Assembly: GCA_944336335.1 (NCBI GenBank)
Contig: CALVLC010000036.1
Span: 1 to 56,421 of the forward strand
Direction: 5' to 3'
Source: an uncultured Bacilli bacterium
Lineage (GTDB): Bacteria > Bacillota_I > Bacilli_A > RFN20 > CAG-826
DNA: 56,421 nucleotides
The notes under the pieces were generated by a model that had not been told where the DNA came from, did not search any database, and worked only from the letters and a program-made list of their open reading frames with translations. The number at the start of each line of letters is the position of its first letter. The first letter of the stretch is position 1. This document shows, one piece after another, positions 1,888-29,849 of this stretch. Made by a program: the position numbers and the translations under genes.

Positions 1888-3945
1888 TTAATTCAAAAAT
1901 TCCAATCTTTTAATAATATGATTTTGGTAAGCAAGGTCTAACTCATTGAAATAACCACTCCAACCCCAAACTCGAACAATCAAGTTTTTATGATCCTCAG
2001 GATGCTTTTGAGCGTCAAGCAATACATCTCGATTGACTGCGTTTAATTGAAGTTGATGCCCTTTTAAAAGAATAAAAGTTTTAACTAAAGACGCAACTTT
2101 ATCAATACCTTCTTGATTTCTAAAAAGAGTGTCATGAAATTCTAAAGTTAATGGTCCGCCATTACATGTTTTAGTTAAATCGGGTTTAGTGAAAGATTTT
2201 ATAACACTTAAAACACCATCAAAATTTCTATTCAAAGATGGCGAATAGTTGGCACTAAATGATTCTTTTGCTTTTCTTCCATCACTCGTTGCACCTAAAG
2301 TTTCACTATACCAAACATAATACATGGCCGAACCTGTCCCTGCTCTAAAAATTCCGCCTCTTCCATTCTTATATTTAGAACATTCCTCAGAAAACTTATC
2401 TAAAAGTTTGCAACCAATATTATCAACAAAATCATCGTTATTTCCCATTTTCGGTGCAGAAACTAAGTATTTTCTTAATTTCTCATAACCTTCATAATCA
2501 TTGTCAATTGCTTTTACAAGTTCTTCTTTATTAACAGTTTTGTCTTCAAAAACACATCTTTTAATAGCGGCTAAGCTATCAGCTGCAGTTGAAAGGCCGG
2601 CTCCGTGAAGACCAAAATTATTATATTTATTACCTTCTGAAATATCTTTTTTGTTCTCAACACAATTTTTCATTAATATTGATTGGAACGGAGAAGGAAT
2701 GAGGAAAATATTTCTAGTTTTATCTATTAAACGTTTGATCTCTTTTTCTATTTCTTTGTTCACAAGCTTTTCAACTTCCTCATAAGTTGTAGCACTTAAA
2801 AATCCCTTTGAGTGAATTGCTTTATCGACACATTTTGGGAAAGCTAGTGCTTCAACATTAGGAATATCCATACCATATTTTGGAATGATAAATTCCCAGC
2901 ATGCTGCGACAACATAATCTCTAGCATCTTCTTCCTTATACCCCATTTTAATAAGGGCAGGAATTACAACATCATCATTAGAATATTGAGGAAATCCTAA
3001 ACCAACTTTTGTTAATTCTGTTCCTAATTTAAACCATTTAAAATCGGTATTTTTATCAACTCTTAAGTTAATTTTAGGATCAATCAATTTTAATTCTAAA
3101 GATGCTCTTAAGCACAGTTCAGTAAGTTCGTTAAAAGCAGATGTTCCATCTCTTTTTATACCACCTAAAACAAGAGATTGACCGTTATCACCTTGTTGTT
3201 CTCCAGGATAAAGATCTGTATCAAAATTAAGAGAAATAAACAATTCTTCAGTAATATTTAAAGCGTCTTCTTCATCGATTATTTTTAAATCAATGTCATG
3301 CTTATAATATTTATACATATATTGGTCAAATCGACCAATTGTATTGTGCTTATTTCCGTTTAACCATAACGTATAGTTAATAATTCTTAAAAATAAAGCT
3401 GCTTCATAATAATTTGTGGCTCCTTCATAAGGAATTTTTTTAAGAGCTATAGCCAAAACTTTGTTATCAGCTCTTTCAGCTTCTTTTTGATATTTTTCAA
3501 TTAATGAATAAAGAGCTAAAATTGATTCTTCCATCGCTTTAAGCTCAATTTCCTCTTTATCAGTATTCTTTTCTTTAAGTTTTTCCCTTATTTCTGCAAG
3601 CCTTTTGTTAAAACCAACACTTATTGTATATTCATAATCACTAGAAATATTTGCAACTAAAGCATGATCAAAAAGAAGATAAGTTTTACTTAATTCTTCT
3701 TTTTCTTTTTCAGTCAAAATATCTGGAATATTTTTAACTGTTCTCATAAATCCAATGTGATCTTCTGGAAAAATAATAGGTTTTTCAAGCTCAACCATTT
3801 TCTTTAATCGATCACTAACTCTTAAAGGAAGTGGAACGTTATTTTTTTCATACTCTAAAGAATCATCAAATGATATATCACTTCTTAAATTACGATATTC
3901 TCTTTTCTTTAATCTTTCATAAATTTTGCTAATTCTTTCGTTCAT
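1888..3945 (-). CDS. Glycyl radical enzyme (PFL-like family, not canonical pyruvate formate-lyase)
   Basis: Gly-radical loop VRVWGWSGYF; single active-site Cys in ACWE rather than the PFL CC pair; GGPLTLE and HQLQLNAV C-terminal motifs. Likely start is ATG 3945 after AGGTG. Confidence 0.9.
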   Translation of the reverse strand: MNERISKIYERLKKREYRNLRSDISFDDSLEYEKNNVPLPLRVSDRLKKMVELEKPIIFPEDHIGFMRTVKNIPDILTEKEKEELSKTYLLFDHALVANISSDYEYTISVGFNKRLAEIREKLKEKNTDKEEIELKAMEESILALYSLIEKYQKEAERADNKVLAIALKKIPYEGATNYYEAALFLRIINYTLWLNGNKHNTIGRFDQYMYKYYKHDIDLKIIDEEDALNITEELFISLNFDTDLYPGEQQGDNGQSLVLGGIKRDGTSAFNELTELCLRASLELKLIDPKINLRVDKNTDFKWFKLGTELTKVGLGFPQYSNDDVVIPALIKMGYKEEDARDYVVAACWEFIIPKYGMDIPNVEALAFPKCVDKAIHSKGFLSATTYEEVEKLVNKEIEKEIKRLIDKTRNIFLIPSPFQSILMKNCVENKKDISEGNKYNNFGLHGAGLSTAADSLAAIKRCVFEDKTVNKEELVKAIDNDYEGYEKLRKYLVSAPKMGNNDDFVDNIGCKLLDKFSEECSKYKNGRGGIFRAGTGSAMYYVWYSETLGATSDGRKAKESFSANYSPSLNRNFDGVLSVIKSFTKPDLTKTCNGGPLTLEFHDTLFRNQEGIDKVASLVKTFILLKGHQLQLNAVNRDVLLDAQKHPEDHKNLIVRVWGWSGYFNELDLAYQNHIIKRLEFLN

Positions 3946-3954
3946 AACTATCAC

Positions 3955-4806
3955 CTATAACACTCTTACTTCAATATCATTCGCTTTAAATAAATCTAAA
4001 TGTGGGTTTGACTCCATATTTTCATCATACATCGGTTCAAACTTTAAACCGGCTAATTTATATTTACTACCTGCATATTTGTTATATGGAAGTAGTTCTA
4101 CTCTAACTAAATCTTTAGCTCCTTTAATTTTGTTTATGATTTCTTTTAAATTTTCTTTTGTATCAATTACACCTGGGATTAAAGGAACTCTAATTATAAA
4201 CTTCGTTTTTGAATTTTTAAGAATCTCCAGATTTTTAAAAATTAAACTGTTGTCAATCCCTTCAAACTTTTTGGCTTGCTCTTCGTCCATCACTTTCATA
4301 TCAAATAAAACTAAATCAATATTGTCGATAATTTCTTTAAATTTTTGAGAATTTCCATATCCAGAAGTTTGAAGAGCAATATGAGTTTTTCCTTTTAGAC
4401 ATTTAACAAGTTCTAGCGTTTCGTCAACTTGAAAAAGTGGTTCACCTCCACTAATAGTAATTCCACCGTTATTAATCTTTAATATATCAGCATTCTTTAG
4501 AAGCTTGCTTACTAATTCACTTACTTCATAATCTATTGCTGACATTCTTATTAAATCACGAGGACAGACATCAACACATTTTGCGCATCCAATACACTTC
4601 TTTCTATTGTATTCGCAAATTTCAATGCATCTGCCACAATTTAGACATCTATTAGGACTCCTTAATGAAACATTTCCAAATCTTTTCCCTTCAGGAGAAT
4701 GGCACCAATTGCAATTTAAAGGACAACCTTTAAGAAAAACAGTTGTTCTTATTCCAGGCCCATCGTAAACACTAAACTCTTCTATTGAAAAAACTCTAAT
4801 TTTCAT
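3955..4806 (-). CDS. Glycyl-radical enzyme activating enzyme (radical SAM with ferredoxin-like insert)
   Basis: DGPGIRTTVFLKGCPLNCNWCH, CxxCxxC insert, GGITISGGEP, ELLPYN; abuts the GRE gene. Confidence 0.93.
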   Translation of the reverse strand: MKIRVFSIEEFSVYDGPGIRTTVFLKGCPLNCNWCHSPEGKRFGNVSLRSPNRCLNCGRCIEICEYNRKKCIGCAKCVDVCPRDLIRMSAIDYEVSELVSKLLKNADILKINNGGITISGGEPLFQVDETLELVKCLKGKTHIALQTSGYGNSQKFKEIIDNIDLVLFDMKVMDEEQAKKFEGIDNSLIFKNLEILKNSKTKFIIRVPLIPGVIDTKENLKEIINKIKGAKDLVRVELLPYNKYAGSKYKLAGLKFEPMYDENMESNPHLDLFKANDIEVRVL

Positions 4807-4840
4807 TTTTAGCTATATATATCTTTAATATTTGAGTTTG

Positions 4841-4889
4841 AAAAAAGCAGTAAATTTGCAATTTAATATTGCAAATCACTGCTTTTTTT
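4841..4889. terminator. Long inverted repeat with A/T tails; intrinsic terminator or mRNA-stabilising hairpin
   Basis: AAAAAAGCAG..TTTGCAAT / ATTGCAAA..CTGCTTTTTT immediately after the GH127 stop. Confidence 0.7.
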
Positions 4890-4900
4890 CTTAAAAATTT

Positions 4901-7900
4901 CTATTCAGCTTCTTTAATCCAAACAACCATTTTTTGTTCTTGTGGATCTCTATTTCCTCTCAAATAGAATGGGATTAAAGTTAATTCTCTAACTCTTCCA
5001 TCTTTATTTCCATTAACTTTTAAGATGTTTGTTGGAATAGCGTAAGAGGTCTCTTCATCAATTTTTCTAACAAAAGTTGTTTCATCAAGTTCCACTCTTA
5101 CTTCTTCAGTTTTGGTGATAGTAATTGTATCATCATCGATAAAGTTTTTGTTGTCAATTCTTTCAGCACAATAAACTAATGGTCCATATTTGAAAGCAAC
5201 TCTACCTTGATTTTCTTCTTCATAGTCTTGATACATTCTCATTACTTGTCTATCAAAAGTAATTTCAACTTCATGTTTACCAGAAGCAAGTTCAAAGTTA
5301 ATGTATCCGTCTTCACTAACATTAAATGTATAAGTCAATCCATCAACTTTAATGTCAGCTTTTGTGGACCATGATGGCATTCTAACTTTTAAGTTATATT
5401 TGCCTTCACTTCTGCTTTCAAATTTCATAACGTTTCCTGTTGGAACATCAGAATATTGAATTAATTGAACCTTTGTATTTCCAACTTTTGAATCAAATGT
5501 TGAAGAAACATATTGATTTATAAATAATGTGTCTTCGCTCTTAGCATAAATAATTTCTGGTAACTCAGAATAATATTTTAAGAACATTGGAACACAACAT
5601 GGAGTGACATTTGAGAATTGTGGTCTAACATAGTTGTCTGAAATCATTGGGTTTGTATAATAGAAACTATTTCCATCTAAACCTAAGCAACCAAGAATGC
5701 CATTGTACATTTCAAGTTCAACTTGATCAGCATATTTTGCATCGCCAAAAATGTTAAACATATTTTGACTATAGAAAGCCATACCAACAGAAGCACATGT
5801 TTCACAATATCCATCATGCGGTAATTGATTTGTTCCACCATAAGCTTCATCACCATTCTTTGTTGAACCAGTTCCGCCTGTAATATACATTTGTGAATTT
5901 ACAATGTTATTCCAAATTGAATAAGCAGCTTCAGCAAATGAAAAGTTTTCTTCTTTGTTTGCTAAATATGCCATGCCATTGTACCAAAGATTTGCTCTAA
6001 CTGCGTGTCCTTGAGCTTCTGTAATTTCTCTATAATCTTGATTATCTTGAGCATAAGCACCATTTGAAGTATTGTTATATCTACCCTCTGTGTGACCTCT
6101 TTCAGTAATCCAAGAACAAGCGATGTCATTATATTTATCAAATCTGATATCTAAAGAATAATATCTATCTGATGGGCTGACTCCTTCAAGATTAGAATAT
6201 TTTTTCTCCATATATTCTACTAATTCTGGATTTTCTTTATATAAGAGATAAAGATTTTCCATGGCTTCTTCTGGGAGTTCATGAGGTGGAACAACCATAT
6301 AACCTTGGAAACCATCTCTTCCATAAATATAGTCAACAATAAATTCAGCAAAACGAGTTGCAGCAAATAATAATCTTGTATCGCCAGTGGCTCTATACCA
6401 ATAAGTTGCAGCTTCAGCTAAACAACCAAAGTTATATAAGTCATGGTGCCATCTTCCAGCTGCTTCAGTTTCATCACAAACATAATCATACTTTAATATA
6501 TTATATGTTGAGAAGTAGCCATCAACTGGTTTCCCTCTTCCATCTTTTGCTGTAGTTTTCTTACTTGCTTCAAAGATTTGTTCAATATATTTATCAACTC
6601 TTTCTTGTAATTGATAAGCACTACCAGATAATTTGCTATCATCTTTATTTGTATAAATAAATGCAGCAGCTGCTCTAATACCTTCATAGATTAAACCTTC
6701 TCTCCAAGGTTCATCAATCCATGTCCATGTTGTATTATTAACGTTAGTTGCATCATCTGGTCTTCTAACTTGTCCAGCATGATCAGATAAATTTCCTAAA
6801 ATATGTTTTTCACCTTTTGCAACGCGATCAAAGTTATCAAAAGAATTTGATAGTTCGAACATATCAAACATAAAGTTTACTGTATGAGTTGAATATTGTT
6901 CATACATGTTTGACCAGAAGCCATCGTTTAACTTGACTTCATTTGAAGTTGTTCTTTGAATTTCGTTGAAATCGTATTGCATTTTTTCTCCTTTTATTGT
7001 GTATGTTCTACTATTTTTTCCGCTTCCAACAACAACTTCAAAATGATTGGCGCCAACTTCATTTACAGTTGCTGTATCATCAGAATAATATGTCTCAAAA
7101 GCTATGCTCTCTTTTTTGATATCTTCTTCTAATAATAACGGATAAGAATATGTTGTTGGCGAGAACCCTTTTACTGTTTCACCATTAATTGTGAGATCAC
7201 TTAATGCATTTTCATGTAAATATTCTAATCCCCATTTGCTCTCTAAATAAGCTTCAACAGTTTGATATTCTCCATCTGTTAGACCCCTGTTAAATACAAG
7301 AATTTCCCCTAAATCTCCAGTAAAAGAATCGTTTTCTGCGCTTCCTCCAAGAGAAACAGGAGCTTCAATATCAGGTGTTTTTGTTGAGCCTTTAAATGAT
7401 GATTCAATTGTGCCATTGACACCTACATCAGCGTCTTCGCCACTCTTTCTTCCAGAAATAATTACTGGTGATTCATAATCAAATGATACTTTTGCTTGAT
7501 AATAACTACCTTCTTTAACAGCATCGGCCCAGCCATAATTTAGTTGACTACCTTCAATGTTGAAGAACCGTTCATGATTCCATGGTGAACCATTTGTTAA
7601 GTGCGAGAAAATATCGGCATGATCATAAAGTTCATCAAACTTAGCAACAACAAATATGGTCATATCGTCTAAATTGAATCCAGTATCAGCACCTACTTGC
7701 ATATAAGAATTTCTTGAAAATCTTACTGCAGGTTTCCCGTTTAGTTCACTTGATTTAACAAAACTTGGTTGACGTGCCGAATTATCTTGAGCCGCATCAC
7801 CGTTTCCTTCAAGAGTATATGGTGCTAAGTTTTCTAATGTTGAAACTTTACTTCCATCTTCTAAATCTAATGTAGAAGCATCAAATCTAACCTCTAACCC

Positions 7901-8035
7901 ATCAATTGTTGACAAAACGTCTTCATTTACTGTTTCTGCCTTTGTTTCTTTGCTACTAAATGGAGCTAAACTATTAACAGAACTTAGAATTGTTGATGCC
8001 GATATAACCATCAACGTACAAATTTTTTTAATCAT
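4901..8035 (-). CDS. Secreted multidomain GH127-family glycosidase (beta-L-arabinofuranosidase-like) with N-terminal LamG-like and beta-sandwich domains
   Basis: Signal peptide; HDLYNFGCLAEAA, GHAVRA, YCETCASVG and PCC motifs match the HypBA1-type E-x-C / CC zinc site; FKYGPLVYCAE; LIPFY. Confidence 0.85.
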   Translation of the reverse strand: MIKKICTLMVISASTILSSVNSLAPFSSKETKAETVNEDVLSTIDGLEVRFDASTLDLEDGSKVSTLENLAPYTLEGNGDAAQDNSARQPSFVKSSELNGKPAVRFSRNSYMQVGADTGFNLDDMTIFVVAKFDELYDHADIFSHLTNGSPWNHERFFNIEGSQLNYGWADAVKEGSYYQAKVSFDYESPVIISGRKSGEDADVGVNGTIESSFKGSTKTPDIEAPVSLGGSAENDSFTGDLGEILVFNRGLTDGEYQTVEAYLESKWGLEYLHENALSDLTINGETVKGFSPTTYSYPLLLEEDIKKESIAFETYYSDDTATVNEVGANHFEVVVGSGKNSRTYTIKGEKMQYDFNEIQRTTSNEVKLNDGFWSNMYEQYSTHTVNFMFDMFELSNSFDNFDRVAKGEKHILGNLSDHAGQVRRPDDATNVNNTTWTWIDEPWREGLIYEGIRAAAAFIYTNKDDSKLSGSAYQLQERVDKYIEQIFEASKKTTAKDGRGKPVDGYFSTYNILKYDYVCDETEAAGRWHHDLYNFGCLAEAATYWYRATGDTRLLFAATRFAEFIVDYIYGRDGFQGYMVVPPHELPEEAMENLYLLYKENPELVEYMEKKYSNLEGVSPSDRYYSLDIRFDKYNDIACSWITERGHTEGRYNNTSNGAYAQDNQDYREITEAQGHAVRANLWYNGMAYLANKEENFSFAEAAYSIWNNIVNSQMYITGGTGSTKNGDEAYGGTNQLPHDGYCETCASVGMAFYSQNMFNIFGDAKYADQVELEMYNGILGCLGLDGNSFYYTNPMISDNYVRPQFSNVTPCCVPMFLKYYSELPEIIYAKSEDTLFINQYVSSTFDSKVGNTKVQLIQYSDVPTGNVMKFESRSEGKYNLKVRMPSWSTKADIKVDGLTYTFNVSEDGYINFELASGKHEVEITFDRQVMRMYQDYEEENQGRVAFKYGPLVYCAERIDNKNFIDDDTITITKTEEVRVELDETTFVRKIDEETSYAIPTNILKVNGNKDGRVRELTLIPFYLRGNRDPQEQKMVVWIKEAE

Positions 8036-8055: not shown

Positions 8056-8904
8056 TTATTTTGTTTTAAGAAATAGTTCAAGAGAATTTGAATAAATTGA
8101 TCTCATTTTAGTAGGTGTCATTTTATAAAATTCTTTGAACTGCCTCATAAAATATTCAGCCGAACTATAATTCAAACTTATTGCAATTGATTCAATAGTA
8201 TCATCGCTATTTAAAAGCATCTTTTTTGCTTCTTCCATTTTCATTTTTAAAATATATTTTAATGGAGAAATGCCAAGATATTCTTTAAAAAGCATATAAA
8301 TATACTTCTCACTGTATCCAAATTTTTCTGCTAAATCTGCGATTTTAATATCTGCATGTTGAAAGTTGTTATCAATATAACTAACCATCGCATTAAATCT
8401 TTTATTTTTAAATGCTGGAACATTGATATTATTTTCTAGGGAGAATTCTTCAATTATTGTAGTTAATAATAAGTCTCTAATTCTCTTTGTATCTTTATTC
8501 TTATAGTCATATTGTTCAAGTTGATATGACAAAGTCAAAATATATTCAGGGAAGTTTGTTGAAAACTTGATTGGTAATATATAGTGATTGCCTTTCTTTC
8601 TATATTTTTCAACTTCATCTTCTTCAACAATTTTAGAATCAGCAGGTAAATAGAAATGATGCCAATGAAGAACGCAATCTGTTGCCTTAAGTCCATAATG
8701 TTTTATTCCTCCAGGAAGAAGAAATAAATCGTTTTTCTTTAAGCAATAATCTTCAAGATGATGGATTAATATTTCGCCGCTCACAATAAACATAAGCTCA
8801 GTTTCATTCATAGTTCTTGTTTCATGAACGTGATGCTTATTGTGTGCAATTCCGCTTTGCACGTGCTCAATTAATCCATTTTTCTTAAAGACAATATATT
8901 TCAT
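8056..8904 (-). CDS. AraC-family transcriptional regulator
   Basis: N-terminal cupin-like sensor; C-terminal double HTH (IADLAEKFGYSEKYIYMLFK; YFMRQFKEFYKMTP). Confidence 0.92.
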   Translation of the reverse strand: MKYIVFKKNGLIEHVQSGIAHNKHHVHETRTMNETELMFIVSGEILIHHLEDYCLKKNDLFLLPGGIKHYGLKATDCVLHWHHFYLPADSKIVEEDEVEKYRKKGNHYILPIKFSTNFPEYILTLSYQLEQYDYKNKDTKRIRDLLLTTIIEEFSLENNINVPAFKNKRFNAMVSYIDNNFQHADIKIADLAEKFGYSEKYIYMLFKEYLGISPLKYILKMKMEEAKKMLLNSDDTIESIAISLNYSSAEYFMRQFKEFYKMTPTKMRSIYSNSLELFLKTK

Positions 8905-8913
8905 ATTTTATAA

Positions 8914-11508
8914 TTAATGTTTTTTACGAATTACAAAGTAATAAACAAGTCCACCAATAAGGCCAACACCAGCAACGCCACCAACTACGCCACCAACAAT
9001 AGCTCCAACATTAAAAGGATCATCTTCTGGAACTATTGGTTCATTAGGATCTGTAGGATCACTTGGATCAGTGCCTTCTTCTCCCCAAACAGCATATAAA
9101 GTTACATTTCCTTCAGGAATAAATGTATCTTTATCATCATAGACTACTTCACCATCTTTTGATGTAGCCCAACCTTTAAATTCAAGTTCGCCATTTTCAA
9201 ATCCAACTTCTGGAAGAGTGACATAGGCTAAGGCATCTGTTGTAATGCTATCCATTGTACCAGTTCCACCGTTAGCATCAAAACTTACTGTATATGTATT
9301 GATTTGCCAAACTGCATATAAAGTAACATCTTCATAATCATTGATTGAACTTACTGTAGCTTTGTCTTCATAAGCAACTGTTCCTTCTGAAGTTAAACTC
9401 CAACCATCAAATGTGTAGTGTTCTCTTGTAAATGTATTTGCTGGTAAAGTAACGTCTGTTCCATATGTTGCAGTGATTGCGTCAAGCGTTCCTTCTCCAC
9501 CATTTGCATCAAAACTGATTGTGTAGTCTTTTGCTTCCCATTGAGCATAGAAAGTTGTATTACCAGAAATATTTTCAATTGTTGCACCATCTTCATAAGA
9601 TGTCCCTGTTCCATCAGGTTTGGTATTCCAACCAACAAATTCATGACCTAATTTTGTGAATGTATTTTTAGGTAAGGTTAATGTTGGATTGTTCTTTTCA
9701 ACATAAATTTGAATTGTTTCGCCGTTTCCAGTATTTGCATCAAGAGAAATTTCAAATGTATCTAAAGTCCAAATTGCATAGAGTTCAACTGGTTCTGTTG
9801 TAGAAATTTCACTACCAATTGCGTATGAAGTTCCTGTTCCATCAGCTTTTGTATTCCATGATGATAAGACATAACCTTCTCTTGTGAATGTGTCACCTTT
9901 TAATGTTAATGAATCAGCTGTAACAAATGGTTCAACAACATTATCAGTATCATAATTAGAGTGAAGTTTTACTGACTTAATTTCATCTCCAATGAAATCT
10001 TTGATATTGCTTGTATCAGCGGCTTTGGAGTAAACACGAATATTATCAAAATACGCGTTAATGAAATTGTCGCCTTCGTGAGAATTTGTTCCGAGCAAAA
10101 TATTACCTTCATTACTCTTTGCAAGATCATGTAGGAAAGTTTCACAACGTGGTTGATTATCTCCGATTGTTATTTCACTCATCAATTCACCATCAACATA
10201 AATAGCAATTTTATTGTCATCAAATGTTGTTGTAAAATTAATCCACTTGTGGTTTGTAAAATGGAAACCATTGTCACCGAGAAGTTGATTTTCGCCATTA
10301 TTTACATAAGAAACTTCAAAAAGTTTTTGTTCATTTCTTGGACAATAAACCATATAAGTAAGTCTTTTATCAATTGTAGCATATAAATCAATAAATCTAT
10401 CCCAATCTGATGAGTCAGAACTTTGTAAATTTATATCAAATGAAATTGTATATTCACTAAAGCCAGAAATGAAATTTGGATTTACGTCTTCTGTAAAACC
10501 TCTATCTGGATTTGCAGATTTTCCAGTTAAAGCTAATGCTGCACCATCTTGAATTGTTACATAACCATTATCAGAAACACTATCTTTTACGAAATGATGT
10601 TTTGTATTGTCTGGATCTTTATAAATACCTAAATCATAATCTCTTACATTATTGCTAAGATATGTTTCTTCACTATCAAATGTCCATTCATCTGTTAAGA
10701 AGTCACTTGCAGTGAAATTATAAAGAGTTTCAATTGAAGCTTCATCTAAAGCTTCGCTATAAATTCTAAAATCAGCAATTTGACCTTTGTAATCGTTATG
10801 AGGACCTTCATCGTGATATCCACTATAAGAAGATTGACCTAAGTAGAAATGCGCTGTTTCACTTGCATATTGACTTGGAGAAAAACTTGGATCTAATTCT
10901 TGTGTTAAAACTAAATCACCGTTCTCATAGACATTAAATTCATGATTTGCGCCATCAATAACATATGTCATGTGATACCAAGCATCATAAACTGGTGCGA
11001 CGCCTGTGTTAAGGTTAATACCACTTGGATTCCCAGCGCAAAAAATATAATCGTTATTATGAAAAGATGCATAAGGATCACTTCTGAAAGCGACATCATT
11101 TTCAGGTGAATAAATACCAATTTCACCTAAATATGATTCAACACCTGATGGCAAATAATACCAGCCAGAAATACTAACAACATCTTGCCCTTCAAAAATG
11201 TCAGTTGGTAATTCTAAATAATTTACTTTTTGAGTTCCACCAGGTAAATTAATACCTTTTTTACCTTGAGGACCATCAACTGATGTAATTGTATTGCCAT
11301 TTTGTAAAATAGCATCAGCAAATGCTGTTCCACTTGTGTTCTTTCCTAAATTATTAATGTCTGAAAAATCCAAAGCATAAAGCAAATTGCTTGAAGAATT
11401 TTCGCTAAATACATCAGGATTATCGAACGACGTACAAAATAAGCCGCCCGTTAAGAGTGTAGCCGACAAAAGCAGACATTTTCCGTGTCTAAACATTTTT
11501 TGTTTCAT
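8914..11508 (-). CDS. Membrane-anchored surface protein: two LamG/concanavalin-like domains, several InlB B-repeats, C-terminal TM helix
   Basis: Signal peptide; WYHMTYV and FDNIRVY LamG motifs; repeated F..W.....G and LYA.W B-repeat units; DPSDPTDPNEP linker; GAIVGGVVGGVAGVGLIGGLVYYFVIRKKH anchor. Confidence 0.82.
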   Translation of the reverse strand: MKQKMFRHGKCLLLSATLLTGGLFCTSFDNPDVFSENSSSNLLYALDFSDINNLGKNTSGTAFADAILQNGNTITSVDGPQGKKGINLPGGTQKVNYLELPTDIFEGQDVVSISGWYYLPSGVESYLGEIGIYSPENDVAFRSDPYASFHNNDYIFCAGNPSGINLNTGVAPVYDAWYHMTYVIDGANHEFNVYENGDLVLTQELDPSFSPSQYASETAHFYLGQSSYSGYHDEGPHNDYKGQIADFRIYSEALDEASIETLYNFTASDFLTDEWTFDSEETYLSNNVRDYDLGIYKDPDNTKHHFVKDSVSDNGYVTIQDGAALALTGKSANPDRGFTEDVNPNFISGFSEYTISFDINLQSSDSSDWDRFIDLYATIDKRLTYMVYCPRNEQKLFEVSYVNNGENQLLGDNGFHFTNHKWINFTTTFDDNKIAIYVDGELMSEITIGDNQPRCETFLHDLAKSNEGNILLGTNSHEGDNFINAYFDNIRVYSKAADTSNIKDFIGDEIKSVKLHSNYDTDNVVEPFVTADSLTLKGDTFTREGYVLSSWNTKADGTGTSYAIGSEISTTEPVELYAIWTLDTFEISLDANTGNGETIQIYVEKNNPTLTLPKNTFTKLGHEFVGWNTKPDGTGTSYEDGATIENISGNTTFYAQWEAKDYTISFDANGGEGTLDAITATYGTDVTLPANTFTREHYTFDGWSLTSEGTVAYEDKATVSSINDYEDVTLYAVWQINTYTVSFDANGGTGTMDSITTDALAYVTLPEVGFENGELEFKGWATSKDGEVVYDDKDTFIPEGNVTLYAVWGEEGTDPSDPTDPNEPIVPEDDPFNVGAIVGGVVGGVAGVGLIGGLVYYFVIRKKH

Positions 11509-22001: not shown

Positions 22002-23540
22002 CTAGAATATAGTTTTGTTGGAATAATCATCAAATAAGTGAATTTTTTCGACATTAAATACTAAATCAAGTTTAGCATTTTGAGCAATCTTACGATCATT
22101 GTCGATACGAGCAATAAACTCTTTATCATTTAATTCACCATGGATGTAATATTCGTTTCCAAGTAATTCTGGTATTTGAACATCAAGGCTGAAAACTGGT
22201 GAAGCTTCTTTAAATAAAGCTTTATTTTCCGCAAGTTCAATATGCTCTGGTCTGATACCAAAAGTGCAATCGAAACCATCTCTTAAACAATTTTCATAAT
22301 TTGCAATTAAATCATTCAATTCTTTTAAGAGTTTTTCTTTCACTTCATCAAATGTTGGCAATTCATTCTTTTTGAAAAGATTTTTGATGTTAAATTGATT
22401 TGTACCTTTTAAGACAGCTTTTGAAACAGCTAAGTGGGCTTTAATTTCAGATTGAGCGTCAGTTGTATATTCTGAAGTCTCTTCACTTGATTTTTCAGCA
22501 TCTAAAGATTTTAATTGATCTTTATCAATTTTATGTGGTAAAAGTTCAACTTCATAATTGATGTTAGCGATTCTATCTTTTAAAGTTGCAATTTCTTTTT
22601 CAAAGAAACTCTTAATTGCTTCTTGTTTTTCTGCACTTAATTTAAAGGAATAGCCATCTTTAAAAGTAACAACGCCATTTTCGTAATGTGCATCCAACAT
22701 ATTCATAGATGGTGTTCCAATAAATGTAGCAACAAATTTATTAGATGGATTTGAATAAATTTCTTCTGGTGTTCCAATTTGTTGAACGTGACCTTTACTC
22801 ATAACAACAATTCTACTAGCCATAGTCATAGCTTCAGTTTGGTCATGGGTAACATAAATTGTTGTAGCATTTAATCTTTGATGAAGTTTAACAATTTCAC
22901 TTCTCATAGTGACACGAAGTTTAGCATCAAGGTTAGATAAAGGTTCATCCATTAAGAATAATTTTGCATTTCTAACAATAGTTCTACCTAAAGCAACTCT
23001 TTGCATTTGACCGCCACTAAGTTGTCTTGGTTTACGATCTAATAATTGAGTTAAATCTAGGATTTCTGCAGCGTTTTTGACTCGTTTATCGATTTCTTCT
23101 TTATCAACATGTCTCATCTTTAGACCAAAAGCCATGTTATCATAAACGGTCATGTGTGGGTAAAGAGCATAACTTTGGAAAACCATAGCAATGTCTCTTT
23201 CTTTTGGCGTTAAATTGTTAGAATAAATTTGATCAATATATAAATCACCTGCTGTGATATCTTCAAGACCAGCAATCATTCTTAAAGTTGTTGATTTACC
23301 ACAACCAGATGGACCAACAAAGACGATAAATTCATTCTTGCTAATTTCAATATTAAAATCATAAACAGCATGAAAGCCATTTGGGTAAACCTTATTAATG
23401 TACTTTAAAGAGATAAAGGATTTAATATTAGGGTTACGTAATTTTTCTAATTTTGATTTTAATAAAGACTCTTCATCAACTACAGTTTCTTCTGTAGTTT
23501 CATTCATTTCATTATTAGATTTTTTAAATAAGTTTTTCAT
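22002..23540 (-). CDS. Sugar ABC transporter ATPase (MalK/MsmX type) with a long insertion
   Basis: [53 protein letters not shown]. Confidence 0.93.
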
Positions 23541-23554
23541 ATCTAACTTGTCTC

Positions 23555-25354
23555 CTATTTTACAAGAGTGATTAATGGAGAAACTAAATCATTAATCTTT
23601 TTAATTTCTTCAACATCAACTTTTGGTTTTCGATCATAAGTTAATAAACCATTAATTTCATGTTCAACATCATAAAGTTGAGTATAACAATAACCAACTA
23701 AACTCGTTGAATTATTAATTGCTTTATAAATTCTTGTTAATTCATCGATATAATCTTTTTCATTTTTAACTGTAGTATATCCCCAGTTTTTGTCTCCATC
23801 AGAAACGAAACTTACTCCTCCAAATTCGGTAAGCAAAACTGGTACTTCATCATTATGATAACCTTCAAGGAAAATATCTCTTCCTGCAGGTTTTGAACTA
23901 ACTAAACTTTCTCTATCTTTTAAGCTTTCTTCAAAAGTTGTATTAACTTTAAAATCACCTTTTTCACCATGACGATAATTGTGGATTGAACAAAGGTCAG
24001 TTTTTGACATTTCCCAACCATCATTTCCAACACATAATCTTGATGAATCAAGGGAATGAGTTAAATGATATAAAGAATTTTGGAATTCAACTTCTTTTGG
24101 ATCGGTTGGTAAATGTGGAACGCCCCAAGATTCGTTTAATGGTACATAAACTAAAATTGATGGGTGATTGTAATTTTGTTCAACAATAGTTGACCATTCT
24201 TTTAAGATCGCATCTTGTGTAAATTTATTAAATAATTGAGCAGCTGGTAATTCAAGCCAAGCAATAAAGCCAAGTTTATCACAAAGATAGTAATAATATG
24301 GGTCTTCAATTTTTTGGTGCATTCTTCCGCCATTAAATCCCATCTTTTTAGCAAGAACGATATCATTTTCTAAGTCTTTAACATCTTTATAAGAAAGGAT
24401 ACCTTCTCTAAAATAACCTTGAATTAGCACTAATTTTTGATAAAAAGGACGATTATTGAGGAAGAACATTCCATTTTTATAATGAACTTTTCTCATTGCA
24501 AAGTAAGTTGAAATTTCATCAACTACTACATCACTTTTTATAAGTCTAATTTTTAAATCATAGAGTACAGGATTATTTGGTGTCCAGCATAATGATTCAT
24601 CATGGAAACAACCAGAATAAACATCTTCATTGTTCCAAACCTTTAAAGTTTCTTTAGTAAGATAAGCATTTTCGCCTTTTGCTACTCTTACTTTATTGAT
24701 TGTTTTTCCTTTGAAGATAATTTCATATTCAATCCAGTCATAATCACCAACTGTATTTAACTCAACATCTAGTGTTCCTTTATCAATGTCACTAGTTAAA
24801 TAAAATTCATCGATATAAGAATCATTCAATTCTTCTAAATAGACACTTTTATAAATACCACTTGTTCTAGTATAAAAAATTCCTTCTCCATGGTCTTTCC
24901 AATATTGCTTACCACGTGGGAAATCTTGTCTTATACCATTGTCATAACAATAAACTGTTAATTTATTTTTACCACTTTTAACAAAGTCAGTAATGTCAAC
25001 TTTAAATCGAGTTGAGGCACCAGTGTGACTTGTAACTAAATGACCATTAATAAAAATTTCTGAATAATAATCAACACCATTAAAATTTAATATATAGCGT
25101 TTATTATCAATTGGTTTAACTTCAAATTCTCTTTCGTACCAAATATGATCATGACGTGTTACATCTCCAATTTGACTAAGTTTTGATTCAAATGGAAATG
25201 GAACAATAATTTTTTTAGAGAACTTGTGTTCGTTAAACCATTTTTCTTTATGACCAATGTTTCTGTCATCAAATTCAAAATCCCATTCTCCATTAAGGTT
25301 AACTAAATTTGAGTTTCTTAATAAATATGGTCTTGGATTTTCACTTCTTAACAT
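23555..25354 (-). CDS. GH2-family glycosidase
   Basis: [78 protein letters not shown]. Confidence 0.9.
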
Positions 25355-25374
25355 AATTAACTAACTACCCTTCT

Positions 25375-26244
25375 TTATTTAATTCCAGTTCTTGATACAC
25401 CTTCAATAATGTATTTTTGAGCAAAACAATAAACAACCATTACAGGAATTGCGCTAATAACAGCACCAGCAAGAGGAGTTGCATCACCTCCACTAATACC
25501 ACTAACAAGTTTAGCAAGTCCAACTGGAAGTGTAATGAGTTGGTTTCCTTCTTTTGAATCTTGAATTAATAAGGATGCTTGAGTTGGCATTAAGTAGTCG
25601 TTCCAGCTTCCTAAGAAAGCAAAGATTGCTGAAACAAATATTGCACTTTTGCCCATTGGTAAAACTACTTTAAAGAAAATTTGGAAATTACTACAGCCAT
25701 CAACTTTACATGCTTCGATTAATTCATTAGGAATTCCAAGGAAGAATGATCTAATAATAAATAAGCCAAATACACCACCAAGTCCTGGAAGAATTAAAGC
25801 AAGATAATATCTAAAATCATCAACACCTAATAAACCCATATTAAATAAGAGTTCGTAGTTAGGTAAGAATGTGGCAATACCAGGAATCATCATTGAAGAA
25901 AGAATAATTGTAAAAACAATATTTTTTCCTTTCCATTTGATGAAAACGAGAGCATATGCAGCAAAAGAAGCAATAATTAAATATAAAATTGTTTGAACGC
26001 TAGCAATAATAAGTGAGTTAAGCATCCATCTAAAAATTGGATATTCACTTCCTAAAAGAAAAGCATAGTTATTCCATGTAAAGTTTTCAATACTAGGGAA
26101 AAATTGATTAGCATCTGTATAAATATCTGGTTTAAAACTTGCGCCAACAGCCCAAATTAAAGGAATAATCCATAAAACGCCAAGTATTGTTAAACAAACA
26201 GTTGAAATAATACGAGCTGTTAAAATTGATTTTTTAGTTCTCAT
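25375..26244 (-). CDS. Carbohydrate ABC transporter permease (MalG-like)
   Basis: TM helices; IPNELIEACKVDG EAA loop; SWNDYL. Confidence 0.92.
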   Translation of the reverse strand: MRTKKSILTARIISTVCLTILGVLWIIPLIWAVGASFKPDIYTDANQFFPSIENFTWNNYAFLLGSEYPIFRWMLNSLIIASVQTILYLIIASFAAYALVFIKWKGKNIVFTIILSSMMIPGIATFLPNYELLFNMGLLGVDDFRYYLALILPGLGGVFGLFIIRSFFLGIPNELIEACKVDGCSNFQIFFKVVLPMGKSAIFVSAIFAFLGSWNDYLMPTQASLLIQDSKEGNQLITLPVGLAKLVSGISGGDATPLAGAVISAIPVMVVYCFAQKYIIEGVSRTGIK

Positions 26245-26246
26245 AA

Positions 26247-27251
26247 TTATTTAGCCCCTTCTTTTACATAAGCATGTTGCTTTTTGAAGATACGACGATG
26301 AGAATTAGATTTATCTCTTGTAACATAAAGTTGAATTAATGAAATTGCAACGATAAGTAAAGCAAAGAGAACGCACATTGCGCTAGCAATACCTGCAGTG
26401 CCGCTTCTTAAACTTGAAGTATGGATAAGTTGCAAGACTCTTTGAATGAAGACCATTGTTTGTTCGTTTGGTCCACCATTTGTAATTAAGTCAACTTGAC
26501 CATAAACGTTAAATGAAGCAATAAATGTTGTGATTGTACAAACAAGAATTTGGTTTCCAATTTGTGGTAATGTTACATAGAAAATTTGTTTAAATGGTGA
26601 GCAACCATCAATTGAGGCAGCTTCATATAAACTTTTATCGACTTGCTTTAATCCGGCGTTCATGATGACCATGTTGTTACCAACTGTCCACCAAACAGTA
26701 ACTATAACAAGAACAAACCAAGCACTCGCTAGATCACTTTCAAAGTTAAATCCTTTGATTAAGCCTCTTTCTGGATTAAAAACATATCTAAATAAAATAC
26801 AAACTGTTGAAACACTTAAAACATTTGGTAAGAAAAATAAAGCTCTGAAGAATGATTCTCCCCAAGGTTTTTGGTTCAAAAGTAAAGCCAAAATAAATGG
26901 CACAACAATTAAAAACGGAACTGTTAATAAAACAAAATAAAGGGTATGTAATAAACCCTCATCAAAATAAGTTTTATAAGTAGCAATATCTGCGTTTCCA
27001 ATTATTATGTCATGATAATTTTGCCATCCAACAAAGATACGATCAGGATTGCCAAAGTTGTAAGAATAAAAAGAATTGATAACACCTTGAATTATTGGAT
27101 AAACAAAAAACAAACAAAAGAAAAAAAGATATGGTCCAAAGAAAAGTAAAACTGTTCCATATCTAGAAAGCGTGGATTTTCTTTGATCGATTGTTTTTTG
27201 GGCTTCTATTCTTTGCTCAAATGTAAGTGCATTATTATTTACATTTTTCAT
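26247..27251 (-). CDS. Carbohydrate ABC transporter permease (MalF-like)
   Basis: FVGWQNY; LYEAASIDG EAA loop; likely ATG at 27251 after GGAG. Confidence 0.92.
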   Translation of the reverse strand: MKNVNNNALTFEQRIEAQKTIDQRKSTLSRYGTVLLFFGPYLFFFCLFFVYPIIQGVINSFYSYNFGNPDRIFVGWQNYHDIIIGNADIATYKTYFDEGLLHTLYFVLLTVPFLIVVPFILALLLNQKPWGESFFRALFFLPNVLSVSTVCILFRYVFNPERGLIKGFNFESDLASAWFVLVIVTVWWTVGNNMVIMNAGLKQVDKSLYEAASIDGCSPFKQIFYVTLPQIGNQILVCTITTFIASFNVYGQVDLITNGGPNEQTMVFIQRVLQLIHTSSLRSGTAGIASAMCVLFALLIVAISLIQLYVTRDKSNSHRRIFKKQHAYVKEGAK

Positions 27252-27269
27252 AAAATCTCCCATATAAGA

Positions 27270-27293
27270 GGGGTATTTTTAGAAAAATACCCC
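27270..27293. other. Intercistronic GC-rich hairpin between SBP and permease genes
   Basis: GGGGTATTTTT-AG-AAAAATACCCC, a perfect 11-bp inverted repeat. Confidence 0.7.
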
Positions 27294-27312
27294 AGTTTTG
27301 CACGTTTTTTTA

Positions 27313-28758
27313 TTAAATTCCAGTCATGTCCATCTTGACTTGGTCAAGACCATCATTATATAACTCAGCAAGCTTTTCATCGATTTGTGAATCGGTTGGT
27401 GCTGGTCCGTTTTGAGTGTTTGTAAAGTCTTTGACGTAAGTTGTAATTTGCCAAGATGGTGAGAAAGCAACATAACTATATTTATTTGGTTCAATGCATC
27501 TAAAGTTTTCAATATCACCAAATCCTTCTAAATGAGGAATAGCTTTATATTCATCACTTTCTCTTGCAGGAGCATAAGCTGCAATCTTACCTGATTTTGC
27601 CCAATCAGTTGAATGTTCTAACATCCACTTAATAAATTCCATTGAAGCTTGTTGTCTAGTTTCATTTTCACCATCATGGGTATTTTTTGGCATAACGAAA
27701 ATATGTCCATTTGTAGAAATATCACCAGTATAATCTGGGTTTGCAGTTGAGTTGAATAATGTTGAGGCAGGTAAGACATCAAATTCGTAATCCTTTTCAC
27801 CTGTTGTTTGGTGATTAATGAAGTCATTTAATAGCCAAATACCATCAAGATTAAATAAAGCTTTACCATCATAGAAATCTTGAAGACCGCCATCGGTAAC
27901 AATTCTTGGTTCAGAAACTTTTTCTTCATAGATTAATTCTCTTAATGATTGAGCTGTCTTTTTGGCTGCATCATTAACATAGACACCTGGTTGAGCAACA
28001 ACTACTCTACCATCAGATAATTTTTGATTTTCATCAAAATATTCATCGCCTTCTACAACAATTTCGTGTCCGCCATAATTATAGAAGCCATTTTGATAAT
28101 AATAAGTATCTGGATAACCAGTAGCAATTGGAAGACCAACATAGCCATTATCAACAGCAACTTTTGCGCATTCAATGACTTCTTCTCTATTAGTTGGCAT
28201 TTCAAGATCTAATTCTTCAAGTAAAGTTGTATTTACATAAAGACCTGCCATGTGTAAGTCAAAAGGAATACCATATTGGTGATCGTTGAAACGCATATTT
28301 TCCCAAATTTGAGGTGGAAAATCTTCAGCTTCAAGAGTGACTTTAGAAAGTTCCATAATGTCTTCTAATTCTCTAAAATAAGCACTTTCGCCTTCAACTC
28401 TTCCTTCTTGACCAGCAAATTGTAAAACGTGGTCAGCGTGAATTAACATAACATCAGCGTTTCTTCTAAATGATGTTAAGTTTGGTAATGAAGTGTATAA
28501 ATCATTTGGAGCAACAGAGTTAGCAACAACTTCAATTTTTCCTTCCCACTCTTCATTGAATTCATTAATTAGGTTAGTCAAATATGAGCTATCTGTGCCA
28601 GTAATAACGTGAGTAAATGTGATTTCAACATCTTCATAAACGATATTACCATCATCGTCTGTTGTTAATTTACCATCATCACCGCTACCACCACATGAAG
28701 CAAGTGTTGTGCCAATTAAAGCAAGAGCAGCTAAACTAAATAAAAATTTCTTTTTCAT
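27313..28758 (-). CDS. Carbohydrate ABC transporter solute-binding lipoprotein
   Basis: LASC lipobox; YGIPFD, FYDGKALF, DGIW and A.EFIKW family-1 SBP motifs. Confidence 0.9.
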   Translation of the reverse strand: MKKKFLFSLAALALIGTTLASCGGSGDDGKLTTDDDGNIVYEDVEITFTHVITGTDSSYLTNLINEFNEEWEGKIEVVANSVAPNDLYTSLPNLTSFRRNADVMLIHADHVLQFAGQEGRVEGESAYFRELEDIMELSKVTLEAEDFPPQIWENMRFNDHQYGIPFDLHMAGLYVNTTLLEELDLEMPTNREEVIECAKVAVDNGYVGLPIATGYPDTYYYQNGFYNYGGHEIVVEGDEYFDENQKLSDGRVVVAQPGVYVNDAAKKTAQSLRELIYEEKVSEPRIVTDGGLQDFYDGKALFNLDGIWLLNDFINHQTTGEKDYEFDVLPASTLFNSTANPDYTGDISTNGHIFVMPKNTHDGENETRQQASMEFIKWMLEHSTDWAKSGKIAAYAPARESDEYKAIPHLEGFGDIENFRCIEPNKYSYVAFSPSWQITTYVKDFTNTQNGPAPTDSQIDEKLAELYNDGLDQVKMDMTGI

Positions 28759-28781
28759 AATAAATTATTCTCCTTTAAGAA

Positions 28782-29849
28782 TTAATTTTTAAATACTGGA
28801 CCATCTTTTTCTTCTTCAAATGATGGTTCATAATTTTCAACATAAGGGAAGCCATTATCATCCCATTCAAGTTTATCGATATATAAATTTCTACCCATTG
28901 GGAACATAGCATCATATCCATGATAAACAATCCACCAATCATCGTTATCATCAACAATAATTGAGTTGTGTCCAGGGCCTGCAACGTATCTATTTCCTTT
29001 TACGACAAGTTCCCCTCTATCTTCCCCACGGAAGTCAACACCTTCAGCATCAACATAAGGACCAGTAATTGATCTACTTCTTGCAACTTTAACGTGGTAT
29101 GTAGAATTTGCACCATCACAACAAGTTCCTTGTGAAGCAAATAAATACCAATAACCGTCTTTCTTTCTTATATATGATCCTTCATAAGTTGCTCCATTCC
29201 AAGGGCCAACAACACCACCAATTAATATTTTATGACTATCTTCGATAGTGTATTTCAATCCAGTGCCATCCTCATTTAATGGAACAATATATAAGCCTTG
29301 GAAACTTCCCCAACTCATCCAAAGTTGTCCATCATCATCTGCGACAACGCATGGATCAATAGAGTTTTCAACACCAATTTCACCAGAATCAAACATTTTT
29401 CCATGATCTGTCCAAGGACCTTCAATATTATCAGCGGTCATATAACCAATTCCAGTTTCTTCAGTTGCGCCCCAGTTAGAATTTGAATAATAATAAATCC
29501 AAGTATCATTAACTTTGACAACATCTGGTGCCCAAATTGCACTTTGGCTAGGTCCCCAAGCTACTGTTCTAACAATTTTATTAAGTTCTTTAGGCCTTTT
29601 TGAAAATTCCTCAATTTTATATACATTTCCACCAGTGCAGAAAATATATACATCATTTCCAACTCTTACTGCTGTTGGGTCAGCGATATCAGAATTTGAT
29701 AAAGGATTTTCATATGAATTATCGATTTCTTCTGTTGGTTCATCTTTTCCTGGATCATCATCGTTTGGTGTAGAACCACCACCACAACTTGTAGTTGCAC
29801 ATAAGATGCTTGCAGTAAGTAAACCAACTTTAGCTAATTTATTTTTCAC
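28782..29849 (-). CDS. GH43-family glycosidase lipoprotein (arabinanase/furanosidase-like)
   Basis: GTG start overlapping the LacI stop; TTSC lipobox; ADP, WAPDV, SIDP, YEG and GPGHNS five-bladed propeller motifs. Confidence 0.9.
   Translation of the reverse strand: MKNKLAKVGLLTASILCATTSCGGGSTPNDDDPGKDEPTEEIDNSYENPLSNSDIADPTAVRVGNDVYIFCTGGNVYKIEEFSKRPKELNKIVRTVAWGPSQSAIWAPDVVKVNDTWIYYYSNSNWGATEETGIGYMTADNIEGPWTDHGKMFDSGEIGVENSIDPCVVADDDGQLWMSWGSFQGLYIVPLNEDGTGLKYTIEDSHKILIGGVVGPWNGATYEGSYIRKKDGYWYLFASQGTCCDGANSTYHVKVARSRSITGPYVDAEGVDFRGEDRGELVVKGNRYVAGPGHNSIIVDDNDDWWIVYHGYDAMFPMGRNLYIDKLEWDDNGFPYVENYEPSFEEEKDGPVFKN

Follow-up and report, generated by a model that had tools for sequence, protein, structure and literature searches.

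Compact glycyl radical enzymes in furanoside-degradation operons: a deep clade with a candidate role in anaerobic sugar catabolism

The window analysed here, a 56,421-nucleotide stretch of DNA from an uncultured Bacilli bacterium, encodes a compact, oxygen-sensitive glycyl radical enzyme (GRE), one of a deep clade of compact GREs that is uncharacterised. Together with the gene beside it, it probably forms a functional GRE with its dedicated activase. Since relatives of the GRE lie inside glycan operons that cut furanoses (arabinose and others), the enzyme probably catalyses a so far undescribed anaerobic conversion of such a sugar. On balance, we favour a radical enzyme that cleaves a C–O bond in a free neutral sugar from furanosides, with L-arabinose as the leading candidate.

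A compact glycyl radical enzyme and its activase

The gene pair consists of:

1888..3945, minus strand: compact GRE, 685 aa, with Cys loop AACWEF and Gly loop RVWGWSGYF
3955..4806, minus strand: GRE-activating radical-SAM enzyme, 283 aa (TIGR02494, 250.9 bits)

Mechanical calling placed the GRE open reading frame at 1888-3954, with a GTG start and 688 aa. Translation most likely begins from the ATG at 3945, preceded by AGGTGA at a 5-nt spacer; a 95%-identical homologue (P0005) has the same 685-aa length as the GRE counted from this ATG. The first-pass annotation had described a GRE of ~685 aa, shorter than is typical, with ACWE and RVWGWSGYF loops. Both loops are present, the open reading frames have the coordinates it gave and are on the minus strand, and the short length is real by comparison with the 787-aa glycerol dehydratase, relative to which ~60 N-terminal residues and ~40 residues in five loops are absent.

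The Cys loop (VVAACWEFIIP) holds Cys352 and Glu354 (P0001 numbering), and the glycine loop (LIVRVWGWSGYF) holds Gly664 within RVWGW, with Cys352 lying 312 residues upstream. Cys352 and Gly664/RVWGW show no variation in 58 homologues, and, as read from the sequence, all catalytic hallmarks (Gly664, Cys352 and Glu354) are intact. The Cys loop has a single cysteine (A-A-C352-W-E354) without the Cys-Cys pair of pyruvate formate-lyase (PFL). In Pfam, both the PFL-like domain (PF02901, 320.6 bits) and the Gly_radical domain (PF01228, 74.8 bits) scored above gathering. The AF2 model (pLDDT 91.6) is predicted with confidence as a GRE barrel, with a Foldseek TM of 0.88 against glycerol dehydratase 1r8w.

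The activase scored above the TIGR02494 cut-off of 174.35, and carries the radical-SAM motif CPLNCNWC (CX3CX2C, Cys28/32/35) as well as two ferredoxin-type CX2CX2CX3C motifs (Cys54/57/60/64 and Cys71/74/77/81). This score, the two extra Fe-S motifs and the position adjoining the GRE confirm the earlier proposal of a dedicated activase with a ferredoxin insert. Its stop codon overlaps the ribosome-binding site of the GRE.

Family placement and active-site residues

The sequence, predicted-fold and neighbourhood marks of the superfamily are present: a PFL-like barrel with a glycine-radical domain, an RVxG[FWY] loop, a cysteine ~310 residues upstream and an adjacent activase. Scores against all NCBIfam equivalogs were nevertheless far below cut-off, with 331.3 bits for TIGR01774 (PFL2/glycerol dehydratase subfamily, cut-off 678.2), 302.2 for NF007437 (PflD, 1109), 285.8 for NF043068 (HypD, 1100), 262.4 for TIGR04394 (CutC, choline TMA-lyase, 1050) and 80.3 for TIGR01255 (pyruvate formate-lyase, 994.2), the last having C-C where the GRE has A-C-W. 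For comparison, the true PflD orthologues at loci L035 and L056 score 1167-1173 on NF007437. Against the solved GREs, identity is 20-27% throughout. Roughly 1,700 representative sequences match at E <= 1e-30. In our tree the GRE groups with other compact GREs in a clade of 47 members that has 100% support, on the opposite side from glycerol dehydratase, a propanediol-dehydratase-like sequence, PflD, HypD and CutC. By its low scores, low identity and separate clade the enzyme does not cluster with a characterised GRE, in keeping with the unassigned function noted at first, and no characterised member of the compact clade was found in the literature searched. A 2026 GRE review notes that whole GRE clades are still without experimental validation. 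The compact clade is a well-defined target in this respect, offering two genes, an intact active site and purchasable candidate substrates. According to a GRE review, all eliminases and isomerases keep Cys-x-Glu; by its loop sequence the GRE keeps this motif of the eliminase/isomerase classes, as do 41-43 of the 47 clade members.

The best sequence and fold matches are the B12-independent glycerol dehydratase of Clostridium butyricum (1r8w/1r9d) and the GRE 1,2-propanediol dehydratase (5i2a/5i2g), which have the barrel, Cys-x-Glu and an activase with a two-cluster insert in common with the window pair. Glycerol dehydratase matched at 277 bits with the single sequence and 410 bits with a family profile, alongside the TM of 0.88, but is only 27% identical, lies in a different clade and is ~100 residues longer. 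The Cys loop reads C-W-E in the GRE versus C-V-E in glycerol dehydratase, and the Gly loop RVWGW versus RVAGY. The GRE also departs from the substrate-residue set of the glycerol and propanediol dehydratases, which we take to be His164, His281/Ser282, Tyr339, Asp447 and Tyr640 in glycerol dehydratase numbering. In the compact clade, His164, Asp447 and Tyr640 are replaced by near-invariant Asn102, Asn366 and Gly541, and the Tyr339 loop by a near-invariant QQGDNG; His281/Ser282 align with His203/Asn204 of the GRE, all of these pocket positions being assigned by sequence alignment only, with the register of His203 differing between two alignments. As aligned, the swaps predict a larger, more polar pocket than that of glycerol dehydratase, for which the review that describes Cys-x-Glu names His164 and Glu435. 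No microcompartment or aldehyde-handling genes lie near the window pair.

Among PFL-like GREs, activity on sugars is known only for PflD and YbiW (8id0, 8yjo, 8id7), isomerases that open two phosphorylated anhydro-hexitols, 1,5-anhydromannitol-6-P and 1,5-anhydroglucitol-6-P. They have Cys-x-Glu in common with the GRE and match it at 260 bits with a TM of 0.88-0.90, but are 24-25% identical, and PflD orthologues lie in a separate clade. Substrate supply may differ as well, with PflD and YbiW using PTS-delivered sugar phosphates while context suggests unphosphorylated sugars from glycosidases for the GRE. As a working analogy only for GRE chemistry on a furanose sugar, we consider the class III ribonucleotide reductase, in which the thiyl radical takes a hydrogen from a furanose carbinol carbon and the adjacent hydroxyl leaves as water. 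That enzyme lies outside the PFL-like sequence group, requires an external reductant and acts on nucleotides.

Genomic context of the gene pair

At nine loci the pair lies in an operon of the order cytoplasmic GH2 group III, activase, GRE, GH43 and ABC importer; such operons, with a lipoprotein gene between GH43 and the importer, are found at 52-81% GRE identity. In the L064 operon, the GH2 is the sole other cytoplasmic enzyme besides the activase-GRE pair. The best matches of the operon GH2 are 7xyr and 9j6n, both placed by a GH2 subfamily study in group III, which it describes as specific for alpha-L-arabinofuranosides and beta-D-galactofuranosides (PMC12243196). The operon GH43 is closest to 3k1u (labelled beta-xylosidase), followed by the exo-1,5-alpha-L-arabinofuranosidase 3akf. 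A conserved 750-aa operon protein has no PDB sequence match and an all-beta AF2 model with generic multi-Ig Foldseek matches only (TM ~0.1), and gave no clue to the substrate.

A GH127 gene is near the pair in the window and at L063, L067 and L009, and the LamG-GH127 link to the GRE is seen again in a second lineage, where the genes are ordered differently. GH51, mutarotase, sugar transporter and sugar isomerase genes occur near the GRE at other loci, among them L069, with a GH51, an aldose 1-epimerase (mutarotase) and an MFS sugar porter, and L030, where an isomerase-like gene is found together with an ABC system of the monosaccharide type. Many family members have no glycosidase nearby, and for the family's more distant half the only neighbour to recur is an AraC-type regulator. 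No downstream enzyme is conserved beside the GRE among the loci compared. The expectation that homologues would be linked to carbohydrate genes is thus borne out, through the nine GH2/GH43/ABC operons and through GH127 in two further lineages. Conservation of a GH127/AraC neighbourhood holds in part: GH127 recurs, but the main partner is GH2 group III, and AraC is found mainly in the distant half.

Further features of the window that bear on the pair are:

4841..4889, minus strand: hairpin resembling an intrinsic terminator (21-bp stem followed by U6), after the stop of GH127 and before the start of the activase
4901..8035, minus strand: secreted LamG-like + GH127 glycosidase of 1044 aa, whose N-terminus resembles a signal peptide
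8056..8904, minus strand: AraC-family regulator, 282 aa, 20 bp upstream of GH127
8914..11508, minus strand: surface protein of 864 aa with LamG and Listeria-Bacteroides repeat; the LamG/AraC/GH127 block begins with this gene
23555..25354, minus strand: cytoplasmic GH2 group III (furanosidase group), within a LacI-GH43-ABC module at 22002-30829

The setting is, as first described, a glycan island, with GH31, GH2, GH43 and CBM proteins, a sugar ABC system and LacI regulators filling 8-41 kb. The GH2 at 23555..25354 is the same kind of enzyme as the GH2 that precedes activase and GRE in the relatives' operons. The GH127 protein has all three GH127 domains after its LamG-like N-terminal region, and its closest solved relatives are the aceric-acid hydrolase BT1003 and beta-L-arabinofuranosidases; a 55%-identical orthologue is near the GRE at L067, where a 42%-identical orthologue of the 864-aa surface protein adjoins both GH127 and GRE. 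The pair had been placed directly downstream of GH127, and the two are indeed adjacent, but the strong hairpin separates GH127 from the activase (-23.4 kcal/mol, z -4.66, with 0 of 200 shuffles folding as well). A consensus terminator scan missed this hairpin, which was revealed by folding. The GH127 is secreted and the pair cytoplasmic, and this difference in compartment, together with the terminator, sets GH127 apart from the pair and counts against the favoured reading. The activase-GRE pair has probably left an ancestral GH2/GH43/ABC operon in the source genome. It now lies downstream of the LamG-GH127 block, and its transcription is probably either independent of the block or the result of read-through. 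The AraC genes flanking the pair at other loci share just 22-27% identity with the window AraC, too little to establish orthology. Rfam gave no match anywhere in the window.

Candidate reaction and rival readings

By analogy with known eliminase and isomerase classes, we infer the following steps. The activase, with SAM and its [4Fe-4S] cluster, would generate a radical on Gly664, which would move to Cys352. The Cys352 thiyl radical would then take a hydrogen from one of the substrate's carbinol carbons, and Glu354 of Cys-x-Glu would deprotonate the hydroxyl on that carbon, giving a ketyl radical that could expel the oxygen of the neighbouring carbon, either as water (dehydration) or as a ring or ether oxygen (isomerisation), and Cys352 would give the hydrogen back at the end of the cycle. 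The substrate would be a free, neutral, unphosphorylated sugar made in the cytoplasm from imported furanoside-containing oligosaccharides; besides L-arabinose, it could be a galactofuranose-derived sugar or a ketose from either. A sugar, polyol or sugar acid had been suggested at first pass, and of this the carbohydrate link stands through the operons, while the evidence holds no specific pointer to a polyol or a sugar acid.

Several other readings deserve weighing. The GRE could act on a small glycoside or oligosaccharide, dehydrating beside an anomeric or ether carbon to give a keto-deoxy sugar from which the aglycone is then lost. This seems doubtful to us, as does its corollary that the enzyme would cut a linkage beyond the reach of the neighbouring hydrolases. 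The position of the pair between glycosidases and oligosaccharide-type (SBP_bac_1) ABC importers is in its favour, and cleavage of a ring C-O bond next to C2 by a GRE has precedents in PflD and YbiW. However, the mutarotase and MFS monosaccharide porter at L069 and the monosaccharide-type ABC system at L030 argue against it, as do the many members lacking a nearby glycosidase. We regard as unlikely a diol or polyol dehydratase for a fermentation small molecule (glycerol, 1,2-propanediol, ethylene glycol or a pentitol), in which case the carbohydrate context would reflect a saccharolytic lifestyle. Here the closest solved relatives and the retained Cys-x-Glu speak for it, but His164, Asp447, Tyr339 and Tyr640 of glycerol dehydratase are not conserved, neither the window nor the relatives' loci have microcompartment, aldehyde or 1,3-propanediol dehydrogenase genes beside the pair, and the tight GH2/GH43 embedding in nine loci is hard to attribute to lifestyle alone.

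A PflD/YbiW-like isomerase on a phosphorylated anhydro- or deoxy-sugar appears quite improbable. Although PflD ranks with the best matches in both sequence and structure and these are the sole sugar-acting precedents, the PflD model gives 302 bits versus 1109, the two PflD orthologues lie across the tree, and no PTS component or kinase is conserved beside the pair in the loci compared. Hydroxyproline, or hydroxyproline arabinosides from plant extensins, would come into question because HypBA1-type GH127 enzymes trim extensin glycopeptides and a GH127 gene adjoins the pair; the HypD and HypD-activase models are also among the higher NCBIfam scores, though sub-threshold. With 286 bits versus 1100 for HypD, three HypD orthologues in a distant clade, most relatives having GH2, GH43 or GH51 in place of GH127, and proline-pathway genes not seen, we give this substrate very little credence.

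Returning to a free furanoside-released sugar, the reading, if true, would add a new radical reaction to plant-sugar fermentation by gut and digester anaerobes, in a widespread compact clade tied into arabinan- and arabinogalactan-type degradation operons. Tentatively, the compact family may even be the first GRE group on a free, unphosphorylated, furanoside-released monosaccharide (L-arabinose or galactofuranose-derived), providing an entry route independent of AraA/AraB/AraD and XylA/XylB. Such a reaction could account for arabinose use in organisms without classical pentose isomerase pathways. In the source genome, araA, araD and xylA were not found, an absence read from an incomplete MAG (80% complete). 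A true AraA is present in only 8 of 31 GRE-bearing genomes, and therefore AraA is not a requirement for the GRE, nor is the GRE a clear substitute for AraA. A radical C4 epimerase (L-arabinose to D-xylose, D-galactose to D-glucose) is kept as a low-probability idea, given that xylA was not found in the source genome and no other support emerged. As downstream enzymes, the two FGGY kinases of the source genome were uninformative: one is isolated, and the other may be a glycerol kinase, given its position with glycerol-3-phosphate oxidoreductase genes.

The glycyl radical enzyme and its activase

The compact glycyl radical enzyme (GRE) is encoded last in a run of minus-strand genes, given here in transcription order.

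8914-11508 (-), LamG/Listeria-Bacteroides-repeat surface protein
8056-8904 (-), AraC-type regulator
4901-8035 (-), LamG-GH127 glycosidase, 1044 aa
3955-4806 (-), radical-SAM activase, 283 aa
1888-3954 (-), GRE open reading frame

The most likely GRE start is the ATG at 3945, which has AGGTGA 5 nt upstream, overlapping the activase stop codon, and gives a product of 685 aa, the length of a 95%-identical homologue. The first-pass annotation had described active-site and radical loops and a dedicated activase, and these are present: AACWEF (Cys352, Glu354) and RVWGWSGYF (Gly664) in the GRE, and a CX3CX2C radical-SAM motif with two ferredoxin-type CX2CX2CX3C motifs in the activase. The activase scores 250.9 bits against TIGR02494 (cut-off 174.35), and an AlphaFold model of the GRE built from 58 homologues (pLDDT 91.6, pTM 0.92) matches every PFL-like GRE structure at TM 0.8-0.9. 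Motifs, activase score and confident fold therefore bear out the original observation: the GRE is not a chance ORF, and the two genes form an intact pair.

Between the GH127 gene and the pair, the GH127 stop codon is followed by a 21-bp hairpin and its U6 tail (-23.4 kcal/mol, z -4.7). From the U-tract it is 35 nt to the activase ATG, which is not preceded by a Shine-Dalgarno sequence, so the pair is probably expressed by read-through or from its own weak promoter overlapping the putative terminator. At 4804-4842 (-), TTCAAA (4842-4837), a 17-nt spacer, TATATA (4819-4814) and a further 7 nt lead to the activase ATG. We read this as a candidate promoter that overlaps the U-tract and would give a leaderless mRNA; the arrangement is absent from the output of the consensus scan. 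Downstream of the GRE, a gap of ~970 bp holds a 67-aa hydrophobic ORF (1252-1455, -), and different genes occupy this place in L063, the locus of a 95%-identical relative. Because the window begins at a contig end, the downstream boundary of the island is out of view.

Placement among GREs and active-site residues

The window GRE reaches no curated NCBIfam equivalog cut-off. It scores 302 bits against PflD (cut-off 1109), 286 against HypD (1100), 262 against CutC (1050), 261 against the sulfopropanediol dehydratase models (1000) and 80 against PFL (994), while the broad PFL2/glycerol-dehydratase subfamily model gives 331 (678). Among solved structures, B12-independent glycerol dehydratase is the best match, at 27% identity (277 bits from a single-sequence search and 410 from the family profile). 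Clusters of 619-692 aa with >=50% identity numbered >120 in a word-indexed search, and all were unnamed or generically named. Searching 1.84 billion representatives exhaustively gave 1,693 GREs with E <= 1e-30, of which about 40 are full-length compact representatives scoring >370 bits.

In a FastTree phylogeny of 143 rows (family members, representatives and NCBIfam-labelled references), a clade of 47 compact GREs, the window's among them, has 100% local support and a branch length of 0.49, and every characterised reference falls outside it. The references were two PflD, three HypD and two propanediol-dehydratase-like sequences, with glycerol dehydratase and CutC as aligned parts only. As FastTree readily joins long branches, we draw on no other split of the tree than this one, with which the score gaps to the curated models agree. 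Sequence comparison places the enzyme in a distinct, uncharacterised clade of compact GREs. No characterised member was found in the searchable literature, and a 2026 GRE review, which describes whole GRE clades as still unvalidated, names none. The C-W-E and RVWG motifs also occur in other uncharacterised compact GRE clades (675-750 aa) outside this family (23 and 26 of 96 rows, respectively), and are therefore not unique to this clade.

The Cys-x-Glu motif, common to all GRE eliminases and isomerases according to the same review, is kept. Other positions were matched to glycerol dehydratase by HMMER alignment.

Residue correspondences, glycerol dehydratase to this family
His164: Asn102
His281 / Ser282: His203 / Asn204
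Tyr339 loop: near-invariant Q253-Q-G-D-N-G258
Val434: Trp353
Asp447: Asn366
Tyr640: Gly541

Asn occupies the Asn102 position in 44 of 47 clade members. Among 96 other GREs, 69 have His, as do the four references with a residue at this position; CutC is gapped. The His203 assignment is tentative because HMMER and MAFFT differ in register by one residue. Glu605 stands where other GREs conserve Lys. As aligned, the substrate residues of glycerol dehydratase are lost in this family, and the pocket-lining positions appear more polar and less bulky than those of diol dehydratases, which would suit a larger polyhydroxylated substrate.

Within the clade, matches to P0179, P0181 and P0185 (634-668 aa) stop at query residue 637-638, short of the glycine loop. 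Three rows of the clade alignment are gapped over that loop and six lack the Cys-loop cysteine. These may be radical-less relatives.

Furanosidase operons around the pair

The neighbourhood survey covered 31 family loci in species-representative genomes, along with 12 loci whose Pfam annotation was pre-computed. One operon type recurs at nine loci of the window's sub-clade, where GRE identity is 52-81%: a divergent ArsR-type regulator followed by GH2, activase, GRE, GH43, a ~750-aa lipoprotein, a solute-binding protein (SBP), two permeases and an ATPase, with the GH2 end overlapping the activase start in some. By gene order, activase and GRE are thus embedded in conserved operons with furanosidases and sugar importers. 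In one of these loci, L064, lipoprotein signal peptides are found on the GH43, the 750-aa protein and the SBP but not on the GH2, so GH2 and GRE are the cytoplasmic enzymes of this operon. The closest matches of the GH2 are 7xyr (309 bits) and 9j6n (189 bits), which a GH2 subfamily study (PMC12243196) places in GH2_19 and GH2_18, respectively, of group III; that group is described there as acting specifically on alpha-L-arabinofuranosides and beta-D-galactofuranosides. Both the L064 and the window GH2 retain the acid/base NE motif and the nucleophile Glu. The GH43 is closest to 3k1u, labelled a beta-xylosidase, then to 3akf, an exo-1,5-alpha-L-arabinofuranosidase. The ~750-aa lipoprotein directly follows GH43 (L064:9259-11511, L003:13591-15828, L070:10611-12860, L071:10568-12769). 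No match to it was found in Pfam or among PDB sequences, and its all-beta AF2 model (pLDDT 78) gives only generic multi-Ig matches in Foldseek; it is probably a surface glycan-binding protein.

The window holds the same module type at 22002-30829 (-), but without activase and GRE: LacI, GH43 lipoprotein, SBP, two permeases, cytoplasmic GH2 group III (40% identity) and a 512-aa MalK-like ATPase (53%). The window's GH127 has an N-terminus that resembles a signal peptide and so acts outside the cell; this location and the hairpin after its gene limit the local link to the pair. GH127 also adjoins the pair in L063, and in L067 the GRE, LamG-GH127 and LamG-repeat protein (59%, 55% and 42% identical to the window's) occur in a different order; the LamG-GH127 association is thus conserved across two lineages. 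L009 has a more distant GH127, with GH43 and GH2.

Elsewhere, the pair lies near GH51, AraC, an aldose 1-epimerase and an MFS sugar porter (L069), a monosaccharide-type ABC system, an isomerase-like protein and a class II aldolase (L030), or an L-fucose isomerase (L019); L019 and L013 have a GH36-like gene. The proposed carbohydrate link is supported by the GH2/GH43/importer operons and the GH127 loci. In the more distant half of the family, a divergent AraC-type regulator is the sole recurrent neighbour (22 of 147 neighbours, 15 of 32 loci). What the glycosidase partners (GH2 group III, GH43, GH51, GH127) share is furanosidase activity, for the most part on L-arabinofuranosides.

Candidate substrate and pentose-pathway genes

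We infer that the GRE cleaves a C-O bond of a free neutral sugar by radical chemistry, through a ketyl intermediate; L-arabinose is the best candidate. With furanosidases as its partners, the GRE could instead act on a glycoside, which we consider unlikely. A diol or polyol, the substrate type that the glycerol dehydratase relationship would bring to mind, is less probable still beside the altered pocket positions. Action on a phosphorylated anhydro-sugar is more doubtful again, and hydroxyproline derivatives, for which the HypD score is well below cut-off, are the most improbable, with a very slim chance.

The window is rich in arabinofuranosidase-type families, while its own genome, a 2.0-Mb MAG of 169 contigs with a single PFL2-type GRE, yielded no araA, araD or xylA at 80% completeness, and its only FGGY and GHMP kinases fall below the ribulokinase, XylB and GalK cut-offs. 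Absence from so incomplete a MAG is weak evidence; it would fit a non-classical route for the released arabinose. True AraA is found in only 8 of 31 GRE-bearing genomes.
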